From Candidatus Woesearchaeota archaeon (GTDB taxonomy: Archaea; Nanobdellota; Nanobdellia; Woesearchaeales; JABIAG01): a stretch of DNA of 64,000 nt. Shown in pieces: positions 7,920 to 7,972 of the stretch. Under the pieces are notes generated by a model. That model was given only the letters and a program-made list of their open reading frames with translations. It did not search any database and had not been told where the DNA came from. The translations under genes and the position numbers were made by a program. Each line of letters begins with the position of its first letter. The stretch's first letter is position 1. The DNA is taken from the NCBI GenBank assembly GCA_018653365.1, contig JABIAG010000003.1:96001-160000 (forward strand), written 5' to 3'.

Positions 7920-7972
7920 GTGGGCTCGACCGTAGGGAGACCCACTTCGCTTCCCATTGGCGAAAGAATGGA
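7920..7972. repeat. 53-bp structured element, copy 1
   Basis: gtgggctcgaccgtagggagacccacttcgcttcccattggcgaaagaatgga; 45/53 identical to 18643-18695 with compensatory changes. Confidence 0.9.

Follow-up and report, generated by a model that had tools for sequence, protein, structure and literature searches.

A 52-nt unit that occurs twice in the window, the 64,000-nt stretch of DNA analysed here, is probably a selfish mobile element of Woesearchaeota that is non-coding and non-autonomous, is recognised in the form of a folded single strand and reaches its targets by being copied in. That the unit is mobile and selfish we hold with high confidence; its mobility is shown by its multiple copies, by the conservation of the fold and not of the stem sequence, and by its presence or absence between sister species. 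Recognition of the folded single strand is rather likely, judging from the pairing of the aligned copies, and the manner of copying proposed below is tentative. The element is composed of an optional T-rich leader, a hairpin (H1) with a CUYGA/GARA internal loop and an H-type pseudoknot, and its insertion adds the leader, the element and usually a direct copy of 10–49 bp of the target.

The family is apparently undescribed. Rfam gave no match on the element at the gathering threshold in the window, nor at E≤5 for five loci with diverse copies, in line with the preliminary description of this DNA, which had recognised no known family, and full-text literature searches found no description of the element.

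Window copies and distribution of the family

The window belongs to a Woesearchaeota genome of 1.09 Mb and 34% G+C (G000). Woesearchaeota are DPANN archaea, whose genomes are tiny and streamlined and are considered poor in mobile elements. Both copies lie on the plus strand where the preliminary description had placed them, at 7920–7971/2 and 18643–18694/5, and share the 21-mer TTCCCATTGGCGAAAGAATGG, which the window contains exactly twice (0.01 expected). The eight differences between them, already listed in that description as preserving the fold, all proved compatible with it: they concern the pairs 3-24, 4-23 and 12-16, the loop (GTA in copy 1, GAA in copy 2) and C31, which is replaced by T opposite G41. 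The features around the two copies are collected in Table 1.

Table 1. Coordinates in the window of the two element copies and of the adjoining features.
Feature	Position	Strand	Basis or remark
T-rich SRP terminator TTCTTTT	7904–7910	−	
T-rich leader TTTTTTAT, arrived with copy 1	7912–7919	+	Missing from the empty site in G001
Copy 1, hairpin H1	7920–7945	+	Covariation (69 distinct copies); RNA minimum-energy fold gives the same pairs
Copy 1, H-type pseudoknot	7946–7971	+	Covariation of S1 and S2
Extra inserted base A between copy 1 and the SRP gene	7972–7972	+	Comparison with the G001 empty site
Archaeal SRP RNA gene	7974–8247	−	Rfam RF01857, 134.7 bits; empty site in G001
Left copy of the 15-bp target-site duplication ACTTAAAGGGATTCT, end of the 159-aa ORF 18156–18635	18617–18631	+	Single in the G002 empty site
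Leader TTAATTTTTTT, inserted with copy 2	18632–18642	+	Missing from the G002 empty site
Copy 2 (H1 18643–18668, pseudoknot 18669–18694)	18643–18694	+	Covariance-model match, 73–80 bits
Right copy of the 15-bp duplication	18695–18709	+	Starts at the first base after the element, on into the original spacer and TrpRS promoter region

Two further features of the window were noted. At 31439–31535 on the minus strand a 97-nt Rfam tRNA match has no ARAGORN call and is probably an intron-containing tRNA, and the 2474-aa ORF at 10696–18120 (plus strand), with cadherin-like, Big_9 and NosD domains, probably encodes a giant surface protein of a kind common in DPANN archaea.

The element had been presented as a pair of copies, but a search of the whole genome by BLAST and two covariance models returned 12. 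Nine of them are near-identical, one (C2:11325) has a variant hairpin and two (C3:99237 and C1:748635) belong to diverged subfamilies. Of 151 MAGs labelled Woesearchaeota that were sampled from the same order, 42 had matches to a wider covariance model (R2) at E≤1e-3, with 1–12 copies per positive genome and the positives spread over many families; the other 109 genomes had no R2 match. In a phylum-level sample, all of the matches listed again fell within the same order. An exact-pattern scan of 185k species with one common hairpin variant yielded 55 loci, about 48 of which are in records labelled Woesearchaeota, Nanoarchaeota or Nanobdellota or in auto-labelled MAGs, including a contig of the relative G003; three matches are in the complete chromosome of Archaeon GW2011_AR15 (CP010425.1), and the seven bacterial matches are about as many as expected by chance. 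The hairpin pattern had no match in the IMG/VR viral contigs. A weak match in the unpublished genome G004 was excluded from the models and supports no claim, and the unpublished G135 counts once among the 42. Several public MAG records with the element (e.g., CAZJAJ010000001.1) are titled 'uncultured Methanosarcinales archaeon', a label that looks wrong.

Fold of the element

The evidence for the structure is covariation and not thermodynamic stability; the folding energies of single sequences do not stand out on either strand, whether computed for RNA or for DNA (z −1.2 to −1.9). Among 74 model-aligned copies, 69 of them distinct, 92.9% of cells are paired in the revised structure, against 36–45% in slid-partner controls; 18 of the 19 pairs have changes on both sides, and none of 500 shuffles attained the covariation score. 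H1 is 98% paired, with both-side changes in 8/9 pairs, and the pseudoknot helix S2 is 97% paired, with both-side changes in 5/5, figures towards which the alignment leans since it was fitted to a model holding these two helices. The other pseudoknot helix, S1, is 78% paired with some both-side change in all five pairs and, together with the pairs 7-21 and 8-20, constitutes an independent test, since none of these was part of the fitted model. Selection on the structure, which the preliminary description had argued from two copies, is thus borne out by the 69 distinct ones, and the interleaved repeats that it read as a pseudoknot covary over the family in both S1 and S2. Its middle hairpin helix (6-20/7-19/8-18) had to be redrawn: the pair 6-20 is unpaired in 50 of 68 copies, and 8-20 and 7-21 are supported instead.

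In copy 1, H1 is made up of a 5-bp stem, a bulged C6, the pairs U7-A21 and C8-G20, the tandem G9.A19/A10.G18, a 2-bp top stem and a GUA loop. Over the family the basal stem takes forms including GTGGG/CCCAC, ATGGG/CCCAT, GCGGG/CCCGC and GTATG/CATAC, the top stem is CC/GG, CT/AG, GC/GC or AC/GT, and the loop ranges from 3 to about 20 nt. The internal loop, 5′-C-U-Y-G-A facing 5′-G-A-R-A, is conserved; G9, A10, G18 and A19 are invariant and form the tandem G.A, and the pair Y8-R20 is UA in 51 copies, CG in 15 and UG in one, with no unpaired case. A kink-turn of the L7Ae-binding type was considered and rejected: it needs a 3-nt bulge directly 5′ of tandem sheared G.A pairs, facing an uninterrupted strand, and since Y8-R20 is Watson-Crick and U7-A21 is also paired, only the 1-nt bulge C6 is left. 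By inspection, hammerhead, HDV-like and pistol ribozymes were likewise rejected, their conserved cores being missing.

The two interleaved helices, each with compensatory changes, make the second half of the element an H-type pseudoknot. S1 of copy 1 is UUCGC/GCGAA (7946–7950 with 7960–7964), and S2 is CCAUU/AAUGG (7954–7958 with 7967–7971). Between lineages the sequence of S2 is replaced and its complementarity kept (GCATT/AATGC, CTAC/GTAG, CAACGG/CCGTTG, CAGCTG/CAGCTG, AAATT/AATTT), and S1 alternates between TTCG/CGAA and GAAGG/CTTTT or AAAGG/CTTTT. The loops L1/L2/L3, at about 3/1/2 nt, would give a tight geometry.

G.U pairs are rare, at 12 of about 600 pairs in H1 and 4 of about 316 in S2, a scarcity that is unusual for an RNA and more like a DNA hairpin element. 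Many copies also carry a top of the GCGAAGC mini-hairpin type, and such mini-hairpins are very stable in DNA. The G.A loop makes the two strands non-equivalent; the overall wobble counts (37 G.T vs 25 A.C) give no clear strand choice. From the almost purely Watson-Crick stems and the strand-specific G.A loop we infer that one folded strand is what is recognised. Of the two readings offered by the preliminary description, a dispersed, REP-like repeat folding as a single strand is nearer the truth than a small structured RNA.

The same chemistry would suit single-stranded DNA transposition of the REP or IS200 type, in which an HUH nuclease (Y1/RAYT-like), or another hairpin-specific one, acts on the folded strand at the replication fork, either excising or copying it. 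Such a route is also favoured by the orientation of the copies in G000, where eight of nine lie on the G-rich strand, following the GC skew, but this strand rule breaks down in the relatives G003, G038 and G091, which have copies on both sides of the skew and do not reproduce the apparent leading-strand bias. Moreover, IS200/IS605 and REP elements leave no target duplication and this element usually has a long one; together with the gene content described below, this makes the route unlikely. The cumulative GC skew of contig C1 of G000 peaks at about 480 kb and falls steadily to the contig end, marking a candidate replication origin or terminus.

Insertion sites and neighbouring genes

The preliminary description did not include the empty sites in relatives, the long target-site duplications, the T-rich leader or the association with tRNA genes. 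Empty sites were found in sister genomes for both window copies and for three others. At the site of copy 1 (c1), G001 has CGAAAAGAA joined directly to GTGGAAGG, the SRP 3′ end, so that the copy was inserted exactly between the SRP RNA 3′ end and the TTCTTTT terminator. The insert consists of TTTTTTAT, the element and an A; no flanking repeat was found, i.e., this is an insertion without target duplication. The mature SRP 3′ end is now 61 nt from its terminator and, since the insertion parts the two, the primary transcript would be expected to be extended at its 3′ end by the complement of the element. Contrary to what had been thought, copy 1 adjoins the end of the SRP RNA without overlapping it, and is antisense as drawn. 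A link to SRP 3′-end processing, also suggested earlier, finds no support, the SRP copy being one insertion among 12 at a site that is empty in a sister species.

At the site of copy 2 (c5), G002 reads ...CAACTAAAGGGCATTTTATAAAAACATTTAAATA, and the inserted sequence is TTAATTTTTTT followed by the element and a second ACTTAAAGGGATTCT. Here the leader provides the 159-aa ORF with a new last codon and stop (CTT TAA for CTA TAA) as well as a T7 run. For three further copies in G000, c7, c8 and c10, the empty sites are in G001 and G003. The c10 insert comprises a 20-nt AT-rich leader ending in T7, the element and a 22-bp duplication; at c7 the first four bases of the element coincide with the target GTAG (microhomology); and at c8 a stretch of 37 bp of the target is perfectly duplicated. 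The c8 target (G000:C3:82056–82137) is the hairpin-rich 3′ end of a conserved non-coding stretch (GGCGAAACTCGGTGTTTGGAAGGGG...) that is also present in G001 and G003. In G001, a different hairpin repeat of about 55 nt (...AAACCCTCCGAATAAATCGAAGGGTTT...) is found at no fewer than six contig ends (e.g., L149 end, L166 end, L115 start, L118 start, L175 end, L178 start) and is apparently a further multi-copy element at which the assembly breaks.

To compare flanks, we used 65 full-length copies with clean flanks and required the right repeat to start at most 8 nt from the element 3′ end. A flanking direct repeat of 10–49 bp (median 21) is present in 36/65 copies (55%) and at 43/1985 random positions (2%). 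Between the element and the right repeat there are 0–8 nt; the left junction is imprecise and shows 0–64 nt of filler, or microhomology. Target duplication is thus not obligatory, since copy 1 and several others are without one. The duplicate target starts at the element 3′ end, so the interrupted gene or tRNA end remains intact on the hairpin side. Tandem X-E-X-E arrays in several relatives are uninformative on insertion, since they can arise by unequal recombination.

Duplications of this kind recall IS1634, whose target duplications are long and variable (17–478 bp), and IS1630, in which they are likewise long and variable, and a MITE of a DDE transposon making long staggered cuts in IS1634-family style would account for the 10–49 bp observed here. 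The element, however, lacks terminal inverted repeats, its ends GTRKGCT... and ...GAAAGAATGS being unrelated; its 5′ junction is imprecise and contains filler, and its stems vary while the pairing stays, which is not how the site of a duplex-binding transposase evolves. We regard this origin as very improbable.

A run of at least five T lies within 12 nt upstream of 25/65 copies (38%) compared with 2.6% in controls, and an A-run was seen once in 65. The T-rich leader is missing from the empty sites, so it arrives with the insert. On the minus strand, a first duplication is followed by the element, an A-rich tail and the second duplication, which is the anatomy of a SINE: a variable duplication and an A-rich 3′ tail. 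In SINE-like retroposition a minus-strand RNA (E′) with a precise 5′ end and an A-rich 3′ tail would be reverse transcribed at a nicked, priming target, giving variable duplications. The tail is variable (0–46 nt), 15-fold enriched and brought by the insert, the duplication length varies as it should, and E′ is naturally transcribed in tRNA leaders, in introns and after the SRP RNA. On the other side, spacer bases (AT, TC, ATTTT) often stand between the element and the A-run, an A-tail would have no pairing partner in the c1 target 3′ end (AAAGAA), 5′-truncated copies are absent (G000 has no truncated copies that would indicate the direction of synthesis) and viral contigs have no copies. Since reverse transcriptase domains are also missing from the five genomes searched, as reported below, retroposition of this type is unlikely.

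With respect to genes, a tRNA gene lies no more than 120 bp away from about half of 72 copies, and the intact tRNA or gene is nearly always on the hairpin side. Where the tRNA is on the opposite strand (17 cases), its 5′ end is 7–23 nt from the element and the duplicated piece is the first 10–32 nt of the tRNA; the eight same-strand tRNAs have their 3′ end towards the element. Partial tRNA-gene duplicates flank elements in relatives, and four copies in relatives lie within ARAGORN-called introns of tRNA-Gly(CCC), tRNA-Thr(CGU) and tRNA-Pro(UGG), all antisense to the tRNA; neither window copy is inside a tRNA, so the two are not archaeal tRNA introns, which are bounded in the pre-tRNA by splice sites forming a bulge-helix-bulge (BHB) motif. 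The tRNA-Gly(CCC) intron, at position 37/38, has an antisense element in two different families (L044:1449–1590 in G110 and L057 in G069), either an old insertion or a recurrent one. At L044:537–1470 in G110, a cassette of two genes beside tRNA-Gly(CCC) is flanked on both sides by modules that consist of H1 with no pseudoknot and that all continue into one and the same stretch of ~27 nt; by eye, its genes resemble a DUF4258/DUF2283-type toxin-antitoxin pair, and the 12-bp tRNA 3′ end is present three times. This cassette suggests that the hairpin is a module shared with larger insertions.

The other copies in G000 are mostly located after stop codons. Either the duplication or the leader rebuilt the reading-frame end (stop codon) at c5 and c11, and no sense copy was found between a promoter and its gene. 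Such polarity is expected if the T-run and the element terminate transcription in one direction and selection purges harmful insertions. It could also be read as the mark of a host-beneficial module, a portable terminator or insulator, or an RNA-processing or protein-binding site, kept as useful and spread secondarily. The position at gene and tRNA boundaries, the upstream T-run, the strict polarity to promoters, the stop codons re-created at c5 and c11 and a fold kept over many families would all suit such a module. Nevertheless, the same loci differ in presence or absence between sister species, most of the tRNA cases are antisense to the neighbouring gene, the structure would not be in the terminated transcript since it lies downstream of the T-run, and 109 of the 151 sampled genomes had no match. 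We therefore judge a host function improbable, although fold conservation over many families could also reflect one.

Possible routes of mobilisation and known systems

Searches for a partner enzyme gave RVT_1 (PF00078) no match in G000, G001, G002, G003 and G023, with positive control genomes, TnpB (PF07282) none in the five element-rich genomes searched, and Y1_Tnp (PF01797) none in G000, G003 and G038. The RAYT/TnpA partner that the preliminary description had envisaged was thus not encountered in G000, where no Y1/HUH transposase, TnpB or reverse transcriptase was found. Two element-rich relatives, G060 and G091, do have Y1_Tnp genes, which speaks for the REP/IS200 route and against our preferred reading. 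Tyrosine recombinases are present in every genome searched, as expected for XerA, and do not discriminate. Subtracting the genes of G001 from those shared by G000 and G003 (78% of G003 covered) left 21 genes with no transposase-like candidate, a subtraction whose premise is weak since G001 itself has one degenerate copy. Judged by eye, one of the 21 encodes a HerA-like ATPase, and others encode proteins of RNase HII/III-like and LAGLIDADG-like type; the HerA-like domain, DUF87, is universal in the order. A free-standing ORF at G000:C3:42536–43330 (+), in which two LAGLIDADG-like motifs can be made out by eye, is shared by G000 and G003 and missing from G001.

Two other readings were rejected. 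The element is not the scaffold of a guide RNA with an adjacent guide: the adjacent repeat is sense to protein genes and to the few same-strand tRNAs, but antisense to most neighbouring tRNAs. An integrase att-site scar does not agree with one element sequence standing beside many different repeats.

Taken together, SINE-like retroposition fits the anatomy best but has no reverse transcriptase, and a REP/HUH-like route fits the chemistry but neither the duplications nor the gene content. The preferred reading remains a folded strand that is copied in. According to it, the machinery would recognise one folded strand, ssDNA or RNA, and the new copy would be synthesised from a single-stranded intermediate that is discrete and precise at its 3′ end. 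Joining at a staggered or displaced target would then generate the long variable duplication, and the filler at the 5′ junction would be untemplated or tail-derived T-rich sequence, or be replaced by microhomology. No element-encoded or canonical transposase or reverse transcriptase would take part; a host replication or repair activity, or an unrecognised enzyme, would act instead. Afterwards, selection would retain only harmless positions: if the T-run makes the element a polar terminator, as we propose, it would survive behind genes, or in tRNA leaders and introns if antisense to the tRNA.

One possible substrate would arise in lagging-strand synthesis, when a structured primer or 5′ flap is not removed by flap processing; this would explain both the long variable duplications and the homopolymer leader. 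We raise, as a tentative possibility, that the copying of a folded strand of about 52 nt into the chromosome without a canonical or element-encoded transposase or reverse transcriptase is a route undescribed in any domain. If so, archaeal tRNA introns and leaders would still be arising today from insertions into tRNA genes.

A structured 52-nt parasite in about a quarter of the sampled Woesearchaeales genomes, recently moved between sister species, has practical consequences as well. It alters tRNA leaders, tRNA introns, the SRP RNA 3′ end and the ends of protein genes, and bears on the origin of archaeal tRNA introns and of split or duplicated tRNA fragments. Elements of this kind break assemblies and mislead gene-end and tRNA annotation in Woesearchaeota MAGs, and the covariance model is a ready marker for tracking the family.

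Among known systems, SINEs are also short, non-coding and structured, with one precise end and a variable homopolymer-rich tail at the other (A-rich on the minus strand in this element), variable target-site duplications and a strong association with tRNA genes. Unlike them, the element is prokaryotic and not tRNA-derived, no reverse transcriptase was found with it, it has no truncated copies and its duplications reach 49 bp. REP/BIME (REPIN)-RAYT systems and IS200/IS605 ends share with it dispersed, intergenic hairpin repeats, a fold conserved over sequence, nearly pure Watson-Crick stems and, probably, recognition of a folded single strand; they differ in having no target duplication and in depending on a Y1 HUH enzyme, whereas the element has a pseudoknot and duplications and occurs in genomes without Y1 (G000, G003, G038) or TnpB (five genomes).

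MITEs and IS1634/IS1630 offer a precedent for long duplications and for a small, non-autonomous, multi-copy element with insertion polymorphism. In contrast to the terminal inverted repeats and short, fixed-length duplications of MITEs, the element is asymmetric, without such repeats, with duplications of 0–49 bp and an imprecise 5′ junction with filler. Casposon/Cas1 integration involves the Cas1 integrase, terminal inverted repeats and a 14–15 bp duplication; the element has no inverted repeats, and its duplication length is not fixed. Rickettsia palindromic elements (RPEs) are, similarly, tiny structured repeats invading small genomes in which the host gene survives, but they lie in frame inside coding sequences without long duplications, whereas the element rebuilds the gene end by duplication.

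A further comparison is with mobile archaeal tRNA introns and the disruption of tRNA genes by integrating elements (Sugahara 2012, PMC3293823; also, reportedly, Fujishima 2010). Relatives' copies in tRNA introns and flanking partial tRNA duplicates resemble these cases; most copies, however, lie outside tRNAs, no recombinase gene accompanies them and the unit is 52 nt and not kilobases long.

No known class combines a pseudoknot fold under selection with target duplications that are long and variable, a homopolymer leader, the lack of inverted repeats and the lack of a recognisable enzyme (RVT_1, TnpB and Y1_Tnp having been searched), and since this combination is shared with none of them, the identity of the mover could reveal a new DNA- or RNA-copying activity.
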